DNA from: Candidatus Babeliales bacterium
GTDB lineage: Bacteria > Babelota > Babeliae > Babelales > JAUPTZ01
Reading direction: 5' to 3'
DNA: 31,075 bases
Assembly: GCA_044347985.1 (NCBI GenBank)
Contig: JBIKTS010000001.1
Coordinates: 1-31,075, forward strand
Shown: positions 313 to 7,450 of the stretch, piece by piece
Position numbering within the stretch: position 1 is the first letter of the stretch
Layout of the letters: each line of letters opens with the position of its first letter
Made by a program: the position numbers and the translations under genes
The notes under the pieces: model-generated
What the model was told of the DNA's origin: nothing
Databases searched by the model: none
What the model saw: the letters and a program-made list of their open reading frames with translations, nothing else

Positions 313-981
313 ATGAATCACATTCTTCGGGGTTTATCCTCTTTATTTTTGATGCTTGCAGTACACATGCCCTGTGAAGCAAAACTATCAAGAAAGCATC
401 AAAAGACCATTCTCTATTCTGTTCTTGGCACAGGTCTTGTTGCTATCACTGCAGCAGGAGCGGCATATGTGTATGCCACACATGGCAGTAAATCGAAAAA
501 TAAGGTCCGCATTCCAATACTAGATCTCCCACCAATACGTGAAGTAGGTGATGGCAACGTTCCAAAAACTCCAAGAAAGCCTGAATTACTCGACCTTCTT
601 CAAAGCCCCTCATCTCTCGCACAAACTACTCCAGCATCTGGCACATCACCCTCTTTCTTTCTCTCACCAGATACTTCAGGCGATTCACTAATGTACTCAC
701 CGCATACGCCGAGTGATTTTAATAGAACAGACACACCTAAACACACAACACCGAAGGCAAACACAAATGCACGTCCCCCGCGCACACCATTTAGAAGAGG
801 GACAACATCATATAACGATGCCGGAGTTCTCGTTCGAGAACAAATAAAATATAGCGGCGAGGGAATGCCAGCAGCTCATGTAGGCGCAACACCAAACAAA
901 CGCCGCCCCGGCATGCCACGAATCAAATTAAGCCCCAGATATAAAAGGCAGCTTTTTGGCAAATCACCAAAACACAATTGA
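313..981 (+). CDS. Hypothetical exported/membrane-anchored protein with S/T-P-rich disordered tail
   Basis: Signal-like N-terminus ending CEA-K, hydrophobic segment ILYSVLGTGLVAITAAGAAYVYA, then a Pro/Ser/Thr-rich basic tail. Confidence 0.8.
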   Translation: MNHILRGLSSLFLMLAVHMPCEAKLSRKHQKTILYSVLGTGLVAITAAGAAYVYATHGSKSKNKVRIPILDLPPIREVGDGNVPKTPRKPELLDLLQSPSSLAQTTPASGTSPSFFLSPDTSGDSLMYSPHTPSDFNRTDTPKHTTPKANTNARPPRTPFRRGTTSYNDAGVLVREQIKYSGEGMPAAHVGATPNKRRPGMPRIKLSPRYKRQLFGKSPKHN

Positions 982-1086: not shown

Positions 1087-1115
1087 TTGACACAGAAAAA
1101 CCCGATTGATAGTCT
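1087..1115 (+). promoter_or_regulatory. Sigma70-type promoter TTGACA-N17-TAGTCT with extended -10 TG
   Basis: TTGACA 1087-1092, 17-nt spacer, TAGTCT 1110-1115, TG at 1107-1108. Same hexamers and spacing as the atpE promoter. Confidence 0.7.
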
Positions 1116-1120
1116 CCGCT

Positions 1121-1245
1121 GCGTAGTAAGAGAAAACACCACTCAGACACGTGCTACTCACTATAATGTCCCTAAATGAACAATGCTTTACTGTATTGTT
1201 CGCCCCCAACCCTCCGATTTCTCTAAGTCGGGGGGTTCCCTTTTT
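1121..1245 (+). ncRNA. Candidate small non-coding RNA (about 125 nt) convergent on the atpA 3' end
   Basis: Bounded by the promoter above and a terminator hairpin. Internal 9-bp hairpin at 1178-1201. No credible RBS-led ORF. No known family recognised. Confidence 0.5.
1208..1245 (+). terminator. Intrinsic terminator, + strand
   Basis: 13-bp stem AACCCTCCGATTT/AAGTCGGGGGGTT (two G-U pairs on the + RNA, which become C-A mismatches on the - RNA), 4-nt loop, then CCC-TTTTT. Confidence 0.7.
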
Positions 1246-1249
1246 AAGC

Positions 1250-2767
1250 TTACGCTGCATCCTTTGGCTTTGAGAACACCAAAATAAACTCTTCTGCTGC
1301 TCGCTTAATTGCTGATTCAACCGTTTCAGTGAGTCCGTCTGGCGCTTCAACCGCATGAAAAACCTGTGGGTAAATTTCTAGCAAATATGAAACAAATTGG
1401 CGGGCAAACATATTAATCTGAGCCATATCAAGACGGTCAAAGAAATTCTCTTGCAGCAAAAACAAAAATATAATTTCTTCTGCTTGGCTATATGTTGCAT
1501 GCAAATCCTGCTTCAAAAGCTGAATCGCACGCTGACCCCTATCAATAGCCCGCTGACTTGTTGTATCAAGCTCAGAGCCAAACTGCATAAATGCCGCAAG
1601 TGCTTCAAATTGTGCAAGCTCAAGCTTGAGCGACCCAGAAATCTTTTTCATACTCTTAATCTGTGCAGCGCCCCCAACACGAGATACTGATAATCCAATA
1701 CTAATAGCGGGACGAATACCATTATTAAACATATTAGTATCGAAAAACACCTGGCCATCGGTAATAGAAATCAAATTTGTCGCAATATACGCCGCAATAT
1801 CATCGCCTTGCGTTTGGATAATTGGCAGAGCGGTCATAGAACCACCACCGTGATCAGCATGCATCTTGCCCGCACGCTCAAGAAGTCGTGAATGAATATA
1901 GAAAATATCCCCTGGATACGCTTCACGTCCTGGGGGACGGCGCAGTAACAATGAAAGCTCACGATACGCAATAGCATGATTACTTAAATCATCATACACA
2001 ATCAAAACATCCTTACCTGCATCCATGAAATACTCGCCCATGGTGCATCCCACATAAGGAGACAGAAACTGCTCAAGAGCGGTTGCTTTTGCGCTTGCAT
2101 CAACAATAATAGTATATGAAAGCGCATCATACTGCTGCAGGAGGTGAATCATTTTTGCAGTGTCAGACTGCTTGTGTCCGATCACAACATAAATACAAAT
2201 AACGTTCTTGCCTTTTTGATTAATAATAGTGTTGATAGCAGTTGTTGTTTTACCAGTACTTCTGTTTCCAATAAGCAACTCACGTTGCCCTTTTCCAATT
2301 GGAATCAACGCATCAATAACTAAGCATCCTGTTTCAAGCGGCTGACATACCGGCGTTCGAGTAATAATCCCAGGTGCTGTACGCTCAATGGCTCGCATTT
2401 CACTGGCGACAATTTCTCCCATCGCGTCAATCGGCTCCCCTGACGGGCTCACTACCCGCCCTAAAAGTGCATCGCCAACCGGAATCTGAAATAAGTGCCC
2501 CGTGCGCCGTACAACTTCTTGTTCAAAGACATCAGCAGCATGATTAAGCAAAATAATTGAGACGTAATCTTCATCAAGATCCATTACTATCCCGCGCGCA
2601 CCTGACTCAAATAACACAAGTTCGCCATAAATAACGTTGGTTAAACCATATACTTTACAAATACCATCACCAACTCCAATAACGGTACCAACTTCTTCGA
2701 TTGCAGTTTGTGCATTTGGTGTTAATGCTTTTTCAATAAGAGAAATAACACCTGCTGTTTGCTTCAT
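1250..2767 (-). CDS. atpA: F1F0 ATP synthase subunit alpha
   Basis: GDGI, LLGRVV, QRELLIGNRSTGKT, YDDLS, RRPPGREAYPGD, SVSRVGGAAQ motifs. Start placed at ATG 2767 (AGGAG 5 nt upstream); ATG 2770 is possible. Confidence 0.97.
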   Translation of the reverse strand: MKQTAGVISLIEKALTPNAQTAIEEVGTVIGVGDGICKVYGLTNVIYGELVLFESGARGIVMDLDEDYVSIILLNHAADVFEQEVVRRTGHLFQIPVGDALLGRVVSPSGEPIDAMGEIVASEMRAIERTAPGIITRTPVCQPLETGCLVIDALIPIGKGQRELLIGNRSTGKTTTAINTIINQKGKNVICIYVVIGHKQSDTAKMIHLLQQYDALSYTIIVDASAKATALEQFLSPYVGCTMGEYFMDAGKDVLIVYDDLSNHAIAYRELSLLLRRPPGREAYPGDIFYIHSRLLERAGKMHADHGGGSMTALPIIQTQGDDIAAYIATNLISITDGQVFFDTNMFNNGIRPAISIGLSVSRVGGAAQIKSMKKISGSLKLELAQFEALAAFMQFGSELDTTSQRAIDRGQRAIQLLKQDLHATYSQAEEIIFLFLLQENFFDRLDMAQINMFARQFVSYLLEIYPQVFHAVEAPDGLTETVESAIKRAAEEFILVFSKPKDAA

Positions 2768-3321
2768 CATGACTCCTGTATGCATAACTGTTGTTGCAAC
2801 TGACGTATAGTTCTGGCAACACTATGTTCCCAGTAATACAAGGGGGTTTGAATTTTTATTCCAGCAATAAGTGCTGTGTCGAGTGTATACATAAATCGTA
2901 GTGACCCTGGAATTTTAAGTCGCAACTGAGATTCAAGCGCGTTGCGCGCTTCATCAGTAAGCGCATGAGATGTTGTTACCATCACTTCATGAATACCTTG
3001 CATTCTTTTAAACTCATCTTCAAGCATATCAAGAATGCATGCCAATAAATCAAATTCTTTATAGCGCAGCACAGCACACAGCAAATCACCAAGCGCTGGC
3101 ACCAGCTGTAGACGCTGCGAAAGCGCTGCAATTGCTTGATATTTTTCTTCGCTGTGCATGCTGCTTAATTCCAGCACATGAAACACCATAGGGCTACTTG
3201 TCAAACATTCTTTCAGGCGGGCAATCCCTTGAAAAAGATCTTGTTCAGAAATGGCCTGCACTCGCAAAAATGCGCGTGCAAAATTACGCGCTTTCTGTTT
3301 TTTTTGTGTAAACCGATTCAT
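2767..3321 (-). CDS. atpH: ATP synthase subunit delta (divergent)
   Basis: C-terminal D-x-x-LIAGIKI...WEHSV matches the delta pattern. Lies immediately upstream of atpA with overlapping stop/start. Confidence 0.85.
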   Translation of the reverse strand: MNRFTQKKQKARNFARAFLRVQAISEQDLFQGIARLKECLTSSPMVFHVLELSSMHSEEKYQAIAALSQRLQLVPALGDLLCAVLRYKEFDLLACILDMLEDEFKRMQGIHEVMVTTSHALTDEARNALESQLRLKIPGSLRFMYTLDTALIAGIKIQTPLYYWEHSVARTIRQLQQQLCIQES

Positions 3322-3829
3322 ACACTGTATCCTTTTTATCCATACTTGCTAATTTTCCCGCTGCCGCAGTCATATAGCGGCCAAAGAGAGCATCTGTATC
3401 GCGCTGCACACTCTCAGTAACCATGCTCACAAGATCACGTCCTGCTTGTGCTGCCAGGCGAGCTTGCGCCGCTGCATTCTGTTGATGCGCCGCCCGCTCA
3501 TTAATAATACGCGCGCGATCAGCAACCATGCTCTCACGCTCTTTTTCTTTATGATAACAAATCAAATGCCATGATTCTAATTTTGCAGTCAACAATGCAA
3601 TCTGTTTTTCTTGCTGCAAAAACTGCGTGGCTAATTGTTTTTTTTGCGACACTAATAAAAGATGTTCTTCTTGAAGCTGCATCCATTTTTCATATGAATC
3701 TTGTTTGTGTTCACGCAGACGCGGCAAAACATATTCCTGCAGCAGCCCCCACGCTTTAACCAAAAACAACACAAACAAAAGAAGTTGCACAACCAGAGTA
3801 AGTACCGGGATTCCGCTAATTTCCAGCAT
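3284..3829 (-). CDS. atpF: ATP synthase b-type peripheral stalk subunit
   Basis: N-terminal hydrophobic helix then a long charged coiled coil; lies between the other b-type gene and atpH; GGAG RBS. Confidence 0.7.
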   Translation of the reverse strand: MLEISGIPVLTLVVQLLLFVLFLVKAWGLLQEYVLPRLREHKQDSYEKWMQLQEEHLLLVSQKKQLATQFLQQEKQIALLTAKLESWHLICYHKEKERESMVADRARIINERAAHQQNAAAQARLAAQAGRDLVSMVTESVQRDTDALFGRYMTAAAGKLASMDKKDTVYESVYTKKTESA

Positions 3830-4175
3830 GCAAGCGCTCCTCTAACTGCTTTTTAAAAACCAGCAGCTCTTCAACCGACAAAGGTTTTAAATGAACCCGA
3901 CTTGCTGACTGAGGACTGAGAGGAATATGAATAGTATCACTAGCAAGCTGCACTTTTACATCTTGCTGAAATTGAATCAACTGCGATGCTTTTTCAAGCT
4001 GAAAACTTGCTATGTCTTGCTTCTTCAGAATAATCTCTTCGGTGAGCCGACGTTCTTCAATGCGCTGTTTAATCAATGCATCAATCACGGGGTCAAAAAT
4101 CATTCGACGCAAAAAATAGTACACGACGCAAAAATTTATAATTTGAACAATCAGTGTGAGATTAAACGCTATCAT
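3816..4175 (-). CDS. atpF: ATP synthase b/b'-type subunit (short)
   Basis: FNLTLIVQIINFCVVYYFLRRMIFDPV is a typical b-subunit N-terminus; follows atpE. Confidence 0.8.
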   Translation of the reverse strand: MIAFNLTLIVQIINFCVVYYFLRRMIFDPVIDALIKQRIEERRLTEEIILKKQDIASFQLEKASQLIQFQQDVKVQLASDTIHIPLSPQSASRVHLKPLSVEELLVFKKQLEERLHAGN

Positions 4176-4199: not shown

Positions 4200-4448
4200 C
4201 TATGCACGGAATAATAGCATTAATGAAATAATAAACGCATAAATAGAAGAGGTTTCTGCTGCTACAAGTGCAAACATCATTGTACTAAAAATTGAGCTGT
4301 AACTTTCTGGATTGCGGCTGATACTTTCACACGCCTTACCACCAATATACCCTTGACCGAGTGATGGCCCCAGAGCTCCAATTCCCATGCATAGTCCAGC
4401 ACTTAAATTAGCGGCTGCTTTAGTCCAATTTATGATCTCTGTTTCCAT
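4200..4448 (-). CDS. atpE: ATP synthase subunit c, predicted Na+-binding type (82 aa)
   Basis: Two hydrophobic helices with RNPE loop. P28, Q32, E65, T66, S67, Y70. Start at ATG 4448 after AGGAG. Confidence 0.95.
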   Translation of the reverse strand: METEIINWTKAAANLSAGLCMGIGALGPSLGQGYIGGKACESISRNPESYSSIFSTMMFALVAAETSSIYAFIISLMLLFRA

Positions 4449-4494
4449 ATATGCTCCTGATAATAAGTAACGCCATGTAACCACAATTGCCCAT

Positions 4495-4523
4495 AGACTA
4501 AGGCGCCACTAAACAGTTGTCAA
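4495..4523 (-). promoter_or_regulatory. Sigma70-type promoter for the atpE cluster
   Basis: TTGACA (4523-4518)-N17-TAGTCT (4500-4495) on the - strand, about 46 nt upstream of the atpE start. Confidence 0.75.
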
Positions 4524-4569: not shown

Positions 4570-5205
4570 CTAAAAACTTAAAACTGCACGCGCCGGCGCT
4601 CCATCGGTACCAACAAATGGAAGCGGCAAAAGATGTAGCTCATAGACTCGCGTTGTATCAACAGGAGCAAGTCGGAGTCCTTCAACAATAATAATTCCTG
4701 CATCAAATAACGCTCGATGCGATGCATATCCAGGCTGATCTCGTTCAAGGCCAAGCCCATCAACCCCTACCAAAAGCACCCCACACTCGGCCAGATAGCG
4801 TGCAGCACTTGCGGCTAGATATATTTCTTGCAGATTATAAGAACCTATGGCAGGCATGGCACTATTGCGTGTTTTAAGCAAAATTCGCTCGCCGTTCTGA
4901 ATTGAAAATTGCACCAAATCGGTCGCCTCAATCCGCTCACCAATAATCTGCGTTAAATCCAGCACACGACAAGGTCCATTCATAGCTGCAAGAGAAAGCG
5001 TTTCCACCCCTGCGCCACCTTCAATACAGTGCTTTGGTGCATCCACATGGGTGCCGGCATGCATATGCAGCTGGCAGCACCGCGAGTCTGCAATTCCATG
5101 CTCAGCAAAAGTGCGGAGCACTTCAATTTTCAATGGATGACGGTTTTTATATGAAACCATGCCCTCCTGTAATGGCCAGCTAATATCAACAAAGCATCTT
5201 GTCAT
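4570..5205 (-). CDS. Cyclase / kynurenine formamidase (KynB)-family metal-dependent hydrolase
   Basis: HAGTHVDAPKH motif, ILLKT, VGVD, HRALF, IIVEGL, GAPARAV. Confidence 0.9.
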   Translation of the reverse strand: MTRCFVDISWPLQEGMVSYKNRHPLKIEVLRTFAEHGIADSRCCQLHMHAGTHVDAPKHCIEGGAGVETLSLAAMNGPCRVLDLTQIIGERIEATDLVQFSIQNGERILLKTRNSAMPAIGSYNLQEIYLAASAARYLAECGVLLVGVDGLGLERDQPGYASHRALFDAGIIIVEGLRLAPVDTTRVYELHLLPLPFVGTDGAPARAVLSF

Positions 5206-5210
5206 ACTAT

Positions 5211-6128
5211 TTATCCCTGCCGTTCTTTTTCAACCGGATGACCACCAAACGCATTACGTAATAACGCAACCAATTTTGTTGCATAATCACCACCCGTCTC
5301 GCGTGAGCGAGATCGCACAGCAAGCGACTCAGCAATAACCGGCATTTTAATCTTTTGCTTTTCTGCAACAGCAAGCGCCCAACGGCCGGTACCATTTTCA
5401 TTAATCACGCCACTTGTTTCTCCAATGCGCTGCTCATCGCTGAGCACGCCTTGCAGTAAATGAAGCAGGTGCGAACGAATAACCGAACCGTGCTGCCATA
5501 ATTGTGCAATATGCGCCGAAGCTGCATCCACAATCGGACTTTTTTGCAGCATATGAAATCCTTCTGCGTACGCTTGAAGCAGTCCATATTCAATTGCATT
5601 ATGAACCATTTTTACATAGTGACCTGCGCCAATACCCCCAACATGTGCAAAGCCACCTGGCATAGCAAACGCCTGCAAATACTGAGCAACTACGGCGAGA
5701 GCTTCAGTTGATCCACCTGCCATCACACAGTACCCATCAACTGCACCGTGCAAGCCTCCTGAAACACCAGCATCTGAAAAAATAATACCACGCCCGAGCA
5801 ATGCTTCATGGCGCGCAATAGTATCGGTATACAAACTGTTACCACAATCTACCACAAAACAAGATTTTCCTGTTGCTTGCAGTGCAGCTTCCAGTGCCAG
5901 AGAAAATAAGACTTCATCTATCACTTCACCAGCAGGCAATAACAACAAAATGCACTGCACAGCTTGATACATATGCGCAAGAGATGCGACACGAACAACA
6001 CCCTCCGGTGTTTGGGCATGTGCTGATTGATCATATCCATACACATGATATCCAGCGGCCACTAATCTGCGGGCAATGCCGCCACCCATACGACCAAGAC
6101 CTATAATGCCAACATTTTTCTCACTCAT
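5211..6128 (-). CDS. gnd: 6-phosphogluconate dehydrogenase, decarboxylating (short type)
   Basis: GLGRMG Rossmann motif, DCGNS, DAGVSGG, GAGHYVKMVHNAIEYG, LRNAFGGH. ATG 6128 overlaps the zwf stop (ATGA). Confidence 0.93.
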   Translation of the reverse strand: MSEKNVGIIGLGRMGGGIARRLVAAGYHVYGYDQSAHAQTPEGVVRVASLAHMYQAVQCILLLLPAGEVIDEVLFSLALEAALQATGKSCFVVDCGNSLYTDTIARHEALLGRGIIFSDAGVSGGLHGAVDGYCVMAGGSTEALAVVAQYLQAFAMPGGFAHVGGIGAGHYVKMVHNAIEYGLLQAYAEGFHMLQKSPIVDAASAHIAQLWQHGSVIRSHLLHLLQGVLSDEQRIGETSGVINENGTGRWALAVAEKQKIKMPVIAESLAVRSRSRETGGDYATKLVALLRNAFGGHPVEKERQG

Positions 6129-7450
6129 ATAATCCACTCAATACCATGCTTTGCTGAAAATTCTGCGAGTTCATCTGGGCCAACGCTCCCTGCTTTATAT
6201 GAATGAACCGGCTGCTTATATGATTTTGCTTCATCTATAATTCGCCATGACTCAAGAATTTCATCAATCGTTACAGAAAATGTTTTTTCGCCAGCGATCA
6301 TAAATTCTAAAATGCGCCCATATGCACGAAGCGGATCTGCCATCGCTTGCGCAGTACTTGCTTGTAATGCATTTTTAATTGCAGCAGGATCGCTGAGAAA
6401 TGTTGCTCCATTATCACCCTGCACCACACAACCAATACTTAAATCACTCTGATCTGTATCAACACATAATCCATACATAACCGCTCCTGCTGGTGCAATT
6501 TTTTTACCTGTCTTGATAAAAATTGCAACATCTTCCCATTGGGGTAAATCGATCTTGAGTTTTGCAGCAACAAATGTTTCTGTTTTAGAACGCGGAGCAA
6601 CATGCGCTTCTTTGCGATACCCCGTATACTGCCCCAAAAGCACATCTTCAACGGTGCATGCGGCAAGAATTTCAGTTTTATTAAACCCCAAATATGGTTG
6701 ATGCAATACCGGCTCAGTCATCGCAACTAATGCGAGAAACTGCAACAGATGACCTTGGACCATATCTTGGAGCGCCCCGCGCGCATCATAATATCCACCA
6801 CGGAGTCCAATACCATCTTGTTCATTCACCACAATCTGGAGGGACTTAAATCGCACTGATTGCCATGCTTGGTTAAAATGAGGGTCAAGCAAACGAGCGC
6901 CTAAAATACTCATTGGGCCTTTCTTTGCGGTGTAATGATCAATTCTAAACACTTGCGACTCATCAAGCATATTCATGAGCGCATCGTGCAACGCTTGTGC
7001 AGATGCCGCATCATGTCCAAACGGTTTTTCATATGCAATACGGTGCCACATTTCTTCGCCAGAATTATTTTTTTTAAGAATACCAGCCGCAACAAGTCCT
7101 TGCGTGATAGGTAAAAAATAATCAGATGCTGTTGCACAGTATATAAGCGTTGGCGTCGTTTGCGCGCCTAAAACACCGGCAATTTTTGAATAAAGTGTGG
7201 CATCAGTAAAATCGCCTTGCACATATTCTATGTTATCGCACAGCTTTTTCCATATTGCCTCATCACACTGCGCGACATACGGCTGCGCTCGATGCATTAT
7301 TTCTTTGGCAGTTATTACATCATGCGCAACTCCCACAACGCGCCACTCAATAACTGGATCACTTTTCATCACTTCATGAAACGCGGGAATCAATTTACGC
7401 ATTGCCAAATCACCACTCGCTCCAAATAATACCATCGTATGCGTCGTCAT
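6125..7450 (-). CDS. zwf: Glucose-6-phosphate 1-dehydrogenase (divergent)
   Basis: FGASGDLA, EKPFGHD, RIDHY, GYYD..GALQDMVQGH, KTETFVA motifs; AAGGAG RBS. Confidence 0.9.
   Translation of the reverse strand: MTTHTMVLFGASGDLAMRKLIPAFHEVMKSDPVIEWRVVGVAHDVITAKEIMHRAQPYVAQCDEAIWKKLCDNIEYVQGDFTDATLYSKIAGVLGAQTTPTLIYCATASDYFLPITQGLVAAGILKKNNSGEEMWHRIAYEKPFGHDAASAQALHDALMNMLDESQVFRIDHYTAKKGPMSILGARLLDPHFNQAWQSVRFKSLQIVVNEQDGIGLRGGYYDARGALQDMVQGHLLQFLALVAMTEPVLHQPYLGFNKTEILAACTVEDVLLGQYTGYRKEAHVAPRSKTETFVAAKLKIDLPQWEDVAIFIKTGKKIAPAGAVMYGLCVDTDQSDLSIGCVVQGDNGATFLSDPAAIKNALQASTAQAMADPLRAYGRILEFMIAGEKTFSVTIDEILESWRIIDEAKSYKQPVHSYKAGSVGPDELAEFSAKHGIEWII

Follow-up and report, generated by a model that had tools for sequence, protein, structure and literature searches.

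Positions 1087 to 1245 (+ strand) of the 31,075-nucleotide stretch of DNA analyzed here, referred to as the window, very probably specify a free-standing, conserved gene for a small noncoding RNA (sRNA). The evidence for this gene from this one genome alone is modest; the decisive support is comparative, in that promoter, predicted structure, and sequence are all kept across the phylum Dependentiae (TM6). Judged by that record, the gene belongs to a genuine, uncatalogued sRNA family, notable for its phylum-wide conservation. The reading that we prefer joins such an independent, conserved sRNA gene to a hedged mechanism, pairing in trans with mRNAs, and taken jointly the two are probable.

Anatomy of the sRNA locus

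The sRNA gene is housed on the + strand of a 268-nt gap that separates an ORF at 313..981 (+) from atpA (1250..2785, −; Pfam ATP-synt_ab, E = 1.2e-76), the convergent neighbor, which lies outside the RNA. The initial annotation, made from the letters of the window, had described here a TTGACA-N17-TAGTCT promoter with an extended −10 element, a 9-bp hairpin, and a 13-bp terminator that works on the + strand only and ends 4 nt short of the atpA stop codon, and all of these are present. The −35 hexamer TTGACA lies at 1087..1092, with relatives having it at the equivalent position, and is separated by a 17-nt spacer from the −10 hexamer of an extended −10 element at 1107..1115, made up of TG (1107–1108), one base, and TAGTCT (1110–1115). 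This −10 hexamer agrees with TATAAT at three of six positions only and is for that reason missing from a generic promoter scan; it retains T1, A2, and T6 together with the TG extension. The full motif, TTGACA-N14-TGnTAnnnT, has a single site in the 858-kb assembly, the sRNA promoter itself, against 0.74 expected.

From the geometry of this promoter, transcription is predicted to start at about 1121–1123, at the head of a variable 5′ part of the RNA (1121..1164). The conserved 3′ domain that follows (1165..1245) is the match of a covariance model over 81 nt, with 85.7 bits and E = 1.5e-20 within the window. Its first element is the motif ss1, UCCCUAA, at 1169..1175, conserved column by column and predicted to be unpaired. 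Hairpin 1 (1178..1201), defined by fold and alignment, pairs 1178–1186 with 1193–1201 over 9 bp and encloses a loop that varies in length in the family. The alignment and folds then place an unpaired C-rich linker, ss2, at 1202..1209, which reads GCCCCCAA here and C6-7 followed by C/U-AA in relatives. An intrinsic terminator, found by both a terminator scan and folding, closes the domain at 1208..1245 with a 13-bp hairpin (1208–1237) and then CCCTTTTT up to 1245. The approximately 125 nt downstream of the promoter fold into a weak 5′ hairpin, the 9-bp hairpin 1, and the 13-bp terminator hairpin, with a fold z-score relative to shuffled versions of −4.69 on the + strand and −1.48 on the − strand. 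Read on the − strand, the terminator hairpin is followed by the G-rich TTGGGGGCG and no U-run, and it therefore terminates + strand transcripts only. Four nucleotides (1246–1249) lie between the 3′ end of the sRNA (1245) and the stop codon of atpA.

Two further elements that had been read from the window frame this unit. The upstream gene had been credited with a weak terminator of its own at 1004–1023, and the sequence there does hold AAGGC (1004–1008) and GCCTT (1015–1019) followed by TTTT, a hairpin below the threshold of the terminator scan. A promoter with the same hexamers had been placed upstream of atpE; it lies at 4523..4495 (−), so that the window contains two TTGACA-N17-TAGTCT sites against 0.17 expected, and this promoter-like twin (4495..4523) has no TG extension.

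In a sequencing-run lookup, no RNA run matched the window sequence itself. Four metatranscriptome runs from freshwater or wastewater hold half of four sampled words of the consensus core; contigs from these runs cover the core at a depth of 3 to 18 and extend 48 to 255 nt past the terminator, and they may include DNA and are uninformative on strand, ends, and level.

Phylum-wide conservation of promoter and structure

Dependentiae occur widely as parasites of protists, amoebae among them; they are for the most part uncultured, and their genomes measure about 1 Mb. When 41 related genomes were searched at the DNA level, the last ≈75 nt of the sRNA were matched at 72 to 87% identity, once per genome, in 22 that represent many families. 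R1, a covariance model of the family, was run on a phylum-wide sample of 151 genomes and matched 143, nearly always once, and the best match per genome ranges from E = 3.2e-9 down to 3.2e-26. The family is single-copy in ≈95% of the Dependentiae genomes searched. Three genomes have a second, far weaker or partial match to R1, with E values of 2.6e-4 in G063, 1.7e-6 in G157, where the match lies at a contig end, and 9.8e-4 in G158; these could be decayed extra copies of the gene or chance matches. An exact-pattern scan covering 185,579 prokaryote species, each represented by one genome, returned 107 matches. Titles were listed for 80 of the 107; judged by title only, most of those that name a group read Candidatus Dependentiae, Babeliales, Babelota, TM6, or Vermiphilus pyriformis, and the others read “bacterium,” “uncultured bacterium,” “uncultured Pseudomonadota,” “Proteobacteria,” and, in one case, “Epsilonproteobacteria.” We presume the non-Dependentiae labels to be labeling errors. 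Across the 143 genomes with a match, the RNA keeps ≈80 to 95% identity along 84 nt and is better conserved than most Dependentiae proteins.

The promoter is conserved with the RNA. A dedicated promoter of the form TTGACN-N17-TAnnnT lies upstream of the core in 110 of the 116 distinct loci, and two of the six that lack one are cut by a contig end. Among these 110 promoters the −35 hexamer is TTGACA in 109 and TTGACT in one, the spacing is exactly 17 nt in every case, and the TG extension (TGnTAnnnT) is likewise present in 110 of 110. This conserved TTGACA-N17-TGnTAnnnT unit documents a strong-promoter form in Dependentiae. The sequence between the −10 element and UCCCUAA at the start of the conserved core is unconserved and spans 15 to 89 nt (median, 37), and the predicted RNAs are therefore 82 to 160 nt long, with a median of 109. 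Of 108 loci, 102 have a convergent gene as the first one beyond the terminator, so that the RNA is not a leader or attenuator. The genes upstream are diverse and lie on either strand; they encode a P-type ATPase, an ABC ATPase, a glutamine synthetase, a pseudouridine synthase, and others. That the sRNA is an independent unit and not the tail of the 313..981 gene, as the initial annotation had proposed, fits the promoters present in 110 of 116 loci, the varied upstream genes, and the convergent next gene; on these comparative grounds, independence of neighboring genes, as opposed to an origin as the 3′ UTR of the upstream gene, is strongly supported.

Conservation and covariation in relatives, to which the initial annotation had looked for a check on the RNA, are both found. 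The conserved 3′ domain comprises ≈84 nt in the family and is arranged, from 5′ to 3′, as an A-rich run, G-UCCCUAA-A, hairpin 1, an unpaired (G/A)CCCCCC(C/U)AA, the terminator hairpin, and a U-run. Fifteen copies align almost gap-free except in the two loops, and RNAalifold recovers both hairpins. In a larger set of 100 sequences, 85 of them distinct, the two helices contain 21 pairs, and 98.1% of helix cells form standard pairs, with changes on both sides of the helix at 12 of the 21 pairs. None of 500 column shuffles reached the observed values of pairing and covariation, and sliding the partners by one to three columns reduces pairing to 34 to 47%. Hairpin 1 is formed in the family by GAACAAUAC, a loop of variable length, and GUAUUGUUC, giving 9 to 10 bp; changes on both sides are found in 8 of 10 modeled pairs, and 96.4% of cells are paired. 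In the terminator hairpin, the 5′ arm of which starts with CCCU(C/U)C and the loop of which is mostly close to GUYCUAA, 99.7% of cells are paired, and compensatory changes occur at four pairs, including CCCUCC/GGAGGG versus CCCUUC/GAAGGG.

The two segments outside the helices are also conserved. Among the 85 distinct sequences, UCCCUAA shows 94 to 98% identity per column, and the C-run linker ss2 has five columns without variation, namely four of C and the first A. When 110 predicted full-length RNAs were folded with a partition function, the mean predicted unpaired probability was 0.83 for UCCCUAA and 0.90 for the C-run, and the two segments with the invariant letters are predicted to be unpaired in 94% and 99% of these homologues. 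The most divergent homologues have lost UCCCUAA and kept the C-run, to which one of them adds a further GCCCCCCUAAAG within the hairpin 1 loop; of all parts of the RNA, the exposed C-run therefore seems the hardest to do without.

The family comprises two sequence types, defined by C...CCCUCC/GGAGGG (type 1) and U...CCCUUC/GAAGGG (type 2). The unpaired C/U in alignment column 67 and the paired C/U in column 74 are perfectly linked, with 35 distinct sequences of one kind versus 50 of the other, a linkage that may simply mark two clades.

Relation to known RNAs and candidate modes of action

A comparison of the window with Rfam 15, which the initial annotation had also suggested, yielded no match at the gathering score and, at E ≤ 10, a single 14-bit match, attributable to chance, to a hairpin from a plastid 3′ UTR, so that no relevant family was recovered at either threshold. 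ARAGORN finds no tRNA or tmRNA in the window. Identity with the signal recognition particle RNA or with tmRNA is rejected, as the genome carries its copies of both on other contigs (SRP RNA, G000:C37:4904–4996; tmRNA, G000:C40:2075–2549). A full-text literature search retrieved no paper on an sRNA of Dependentiae, and of the surveys of structured bacterial RNAs that were listed, none mentions TM6. The family is absent from Rfam and from the literature searched and is in this sense uncatalogued.

The closest parallel in design is RsaE/RoxS of Bacillales, an RNA of ≈100 nt with its own promoter, an intrinsic terminator, and unpaired C-rich or UCCC motifs that is conserved beyond one genus and is believed to pair with G-rich ribosome-binding sites, with Hfq not strictly needed. 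The Dependentiae sRNA likewise has its own promoter, a terminator, and invariant C-rich motifs that are predicted to be unpaired; it differs in belonging to another phylum, in lacking a match to the RsaE/RoxS model (RF01820) even at E ≤ 10, in motifs that read UCCCUAA and C6-7(C/U)AA, and in its variable 5′ part. Yfr1 of cyanobacteria is a short, phylum-wide sRNA in which two stem-loops flank an ultraconserved unpaired motif; the Dependentiae sRNA is distinct from it in motif and sequence and has an additional unpaired motif 5′ of hairpin 1 as well as a variable 5′ extension. The chlamydial IhtA is a small RNA kept in host-dependent bacteria with reduced genomes and no Hfq, and the present family, while unrelated in sequence to IhtA and similar RNAs, is likewise a lineage-wide RNA of host-dependent bacteria.

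A short RNA that ends in a terminator and exposes several C-rich motifs has the hallmarks of an RsaE/RoxS-type regulator, and pairing in trans is therefore our leading model. Transcription from a near-consensus σ70 extended −10 promoter, ended by the intrinsic terminator, would yield a predicted RNA of ≈125 nt, the functional part of which would be the conserved 3′ domain of ≈84 nt. This RNA would act in trans, its exposed C-rich stretches pairing with G-rich, Shine-Dalgarno-like sites in mRNAs and thus blocking translation in the manner of RsaE/RoxS; such pairing would work without Hfq and might be aided by KhpA/KhpB. We advance this trans-acting pairing tentatively, at somewhat less than even odds. 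A protein search of five Dependentiae genomes, 97 to 99% complete except for the metagenome-assembled genome (MAG) that contains the window, which is 84% complete, found no Hfq, CsrA, or ProQ, and a KhpA-type KH protein and Rho in all five; a second, longer KH protein is also present.

In the complete, 27%-GC genome G096, 11 genes have a G5 run in the Shine-Dalgarno position, and 6 of the 11 runs read UUAGGGGG, versus 7 of 108 G5 runs elsewhere; UUAGGGGG is the exact complement of CCCCCUAA in the G096 sRNA, and four of the six genes are paralogues. At G096:C1:95257–96209 and 812666–814030 are two near-identical pairs of small membrane-protein genes (85–95 aa), each gene preceded by a TTTAGGGGGA(C/T)AAATG ribosome site that is the exact complement of the C-run of the G096 sRNA. 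These UUAGGGGG ribosome sites are a weak hint in favor of pairing. The G096 genes with G-run ribosome sites share no common theme, the G-run sites are absent at those orthologues that are readable in the genome of the window, and the best genome-wide duplexes in G096 are unremarkable.

Broader searches returned null results of several kinds. Duplex energies at 692 translation starts of the window's genome are no better than those of gene interiors. Exact or near matches to the complement of the C-run tract occur no more often than for a reversed control, in either the 41 or the 5 genomes searched, and those near-matches that were examined are mostly KGLG-type codons, for example in FtsZ and YchF. 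No longer antisense partner of the sRNA was found in five genomes. By hand tallies, UUAGGGGG-N3-12-ATG occurs ≈3.3 times per genome versus roughly 2 for the reversed control, and UUAGGGGG before an ATG is about equally frequent in type-1 and type-2 genomes, including those in which the sRNA has CCCCCCCAA. None of these searches found an mRNA target conserved across genomes.

That outcome is one of several points in favor of a housekeeping or protein-binding RNA, in which the pyrimidine motifs and helices would bind KhpA/KhpB, Rho, or RNA polymerase and thereby sequester or guide the protein. KhpA and KhpB carry KH domains, and Rho prefers C-rich, unstructured RNA; KhpA and Rho are the proteins recovered in five of five genomes. 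The repeated pyrimidine motifs (UCCCUAA, the C-run followed by (C/U)AA, and a terminator loop near GUYCUAA) would suit such a partner, as would an RNA that is near-universal, single-copy, and conserved phylum-wide with its stems included, since sequence-level conservation of helices throughout a phylum is commoner among housekeeping RNAs bound by proteins than among regulators that act by base pairing. The promoter, moreover, has the strongest possible form and occurs in that form only once in this genome. 6S RNA is a rod of ≈150 to 200 nt with a large central bubble that is closed by the 5′ and 3′ ends. The Dependentiae family resembles it in being near-universal, single-copy, and probably highly transcribed, and the Rfam 6S model has no match in the five Dependentiae genomes, so that the 6S niche looks empty. 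However, the RNA itself is not 6S RNA (RF00013), the model of which it does not match: at 82 to 160 nt it forms two separate hairpins and no long rod with a central bubble, and as its 5′ part is unconserved and can be as short as ≈10 nt, it cannot be a 6S-type rod. The poor fit to a 6S-type rod, together with a variable gene neighborhood that points to no protein partner, makes a protein-binding role unlikely in our estimate.

A bolder version of this idea, which we rate as less likely still, is that the sRNA is no ordinary base-pairing regulator and instead belongs to a novel class of RNAs, with a housekeeping or host-directed function, in these obligate protist parasites. One possibility is that it would be an abundant, protein-bound RNA that replaces the undetected 6S RNA or titrates Rho or KhpA/B. 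Far more speculatively, it could be an exported RNA that addresses G-rich host sequences: CCCUAA in ss1 of both types, CCCUAACCCU in type 2, and CCCCAACCC in type 1 can be likened to the C-strand of the eukaryotic telomeric repeats TTAGGG and TTGGGG, a resemblance that may well be coincidence.

Whichever way the RNA acts, its conservation, its textbook-strength promoter, and its persistence in genomes that yielded no Hfq, ProQ, or CsrA in the search suggest a central role that has survived genome reduction. The family provides a new marker RNA for the phylum and a candidate for Rfam, and it would correct the annotation of hundreds of MAGs; it also offers an entry point to post-transcriptional control in the cultured members, namely Vermiphilus, Babela, Chromulinavorax, and the Noda2021 strain.

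Facing genes and the convergent atp operon

The genes that face the sRNA differ between the two sequence types. Of 52 type-1 loci, 45 have a convergent atp operon (subunits c, b′, b, delta, and alpha) facing the sRNA, as against 0 of 64 loci of type 2; over all loci, atpA is convergent downstream in 46 of 116. In 41 of the 45 atp-facing type-1 loci, a small gene separates atpA from the sRNA; in the other four, which belong to the genus of the window, this gene is absent, and atpA itself abuts the sRNA. The intervening gene is conserved, directly follows atpA, and encodes ≈157 residues with a signal peptide and a lipobox-like FVSSC (e.g., L107:2727–3266, +); this lipoprotein-like product has no Pfam match. 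Type-2 sRNAs face genes for PilO-like proteins (26 loci), M23 peptidases (12 loci), and others, and never atpA.

This arrangement bears on the proposal that the role of the sRNA is mainly local: strong convergent transcription and antisense overlap would act on the transcript of the facing operon, here atpE-b′-b-atpH-atpA, by ending it, processing it, or tuning it. The initial annotation had likewise suggested, with reserve, that the sRNA might be antisense to the 3′ UTR of the atp transcript. On the − strand, the facing atp operon lacks its own terminator and the sRNA hairpin lacks a U-run, and across the family not only is the next gene convergent as noted, but its stop codon lies ≤40 nt from the sRNA hairpin in 72 of the 102 convergent loci; the frequency with which type-1 sRNAs face the atp operon points the same way. 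In most type-1 genomes, however, the lipoprotein gene and not atpA faces the sRNA, and atp facing is absent from the type-2 clade, the RNA core of which is equally conserved next to PilO-like, M23 peptidase, and other genes; antisense action on atp therefore cannot be the common function of the family. Nor would a purely local role require unpaired motifs to stay invariant and helices to covary throughout a phylum, and as both clades share the invariant motifs, a local effect cannot explain them. We therefore regard a local antisense or interference effect on the facing operon as possible in itself, and as an account of what the RNA mainly does as improbable. That there is no separate gene at all, only a long 3′ UTR or terminator of 313..981 or a small protein gene (ORF 1151..1273), is scarcely credible: the upstream gene does lie on the same strand with a weak terminator at 1004–1023, and a 40-codon ORF does span the region, but the unit recurs with its own conserved promoter beside unrelated upstream genes on either strand, the ORF reads on past the terminator and into atpA, the AUG overlapping hairpin 1 (U at column 16) is present in at most ≈64% of sequences, and no reading frame is conserved, with loop lengths that vary by one or two bases, non-multiples of 3, and so break the frame.

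The atp operon itself can be followed in the window through − strand ORFs for atpH (2767–3321), two b-type subunits (b and b′; 3284–3829 and 3816–4175), and atpE (4200–4484). The GTG-started atpE call (4484) probably overshoots, because an ATG with CAGGAG upstream of it lies near 4447. The F-ATPase genes of the window are those for c, b′, b, delta, and alpha only, with no gamma, beta, or epsilon gene after them, and a gene annotated as “putative cyclase” (4570–5205) occupies the place expected for subunit a. Next to it, at 5211–7450 (−), a 6-phosphogluconate dehydrogenase-like gene and a glucose-6-phosphate dehydrogenase gene are adjacent; the oxidative branch of the pentose-phosphate pathway is thus retained in this reduced genome.
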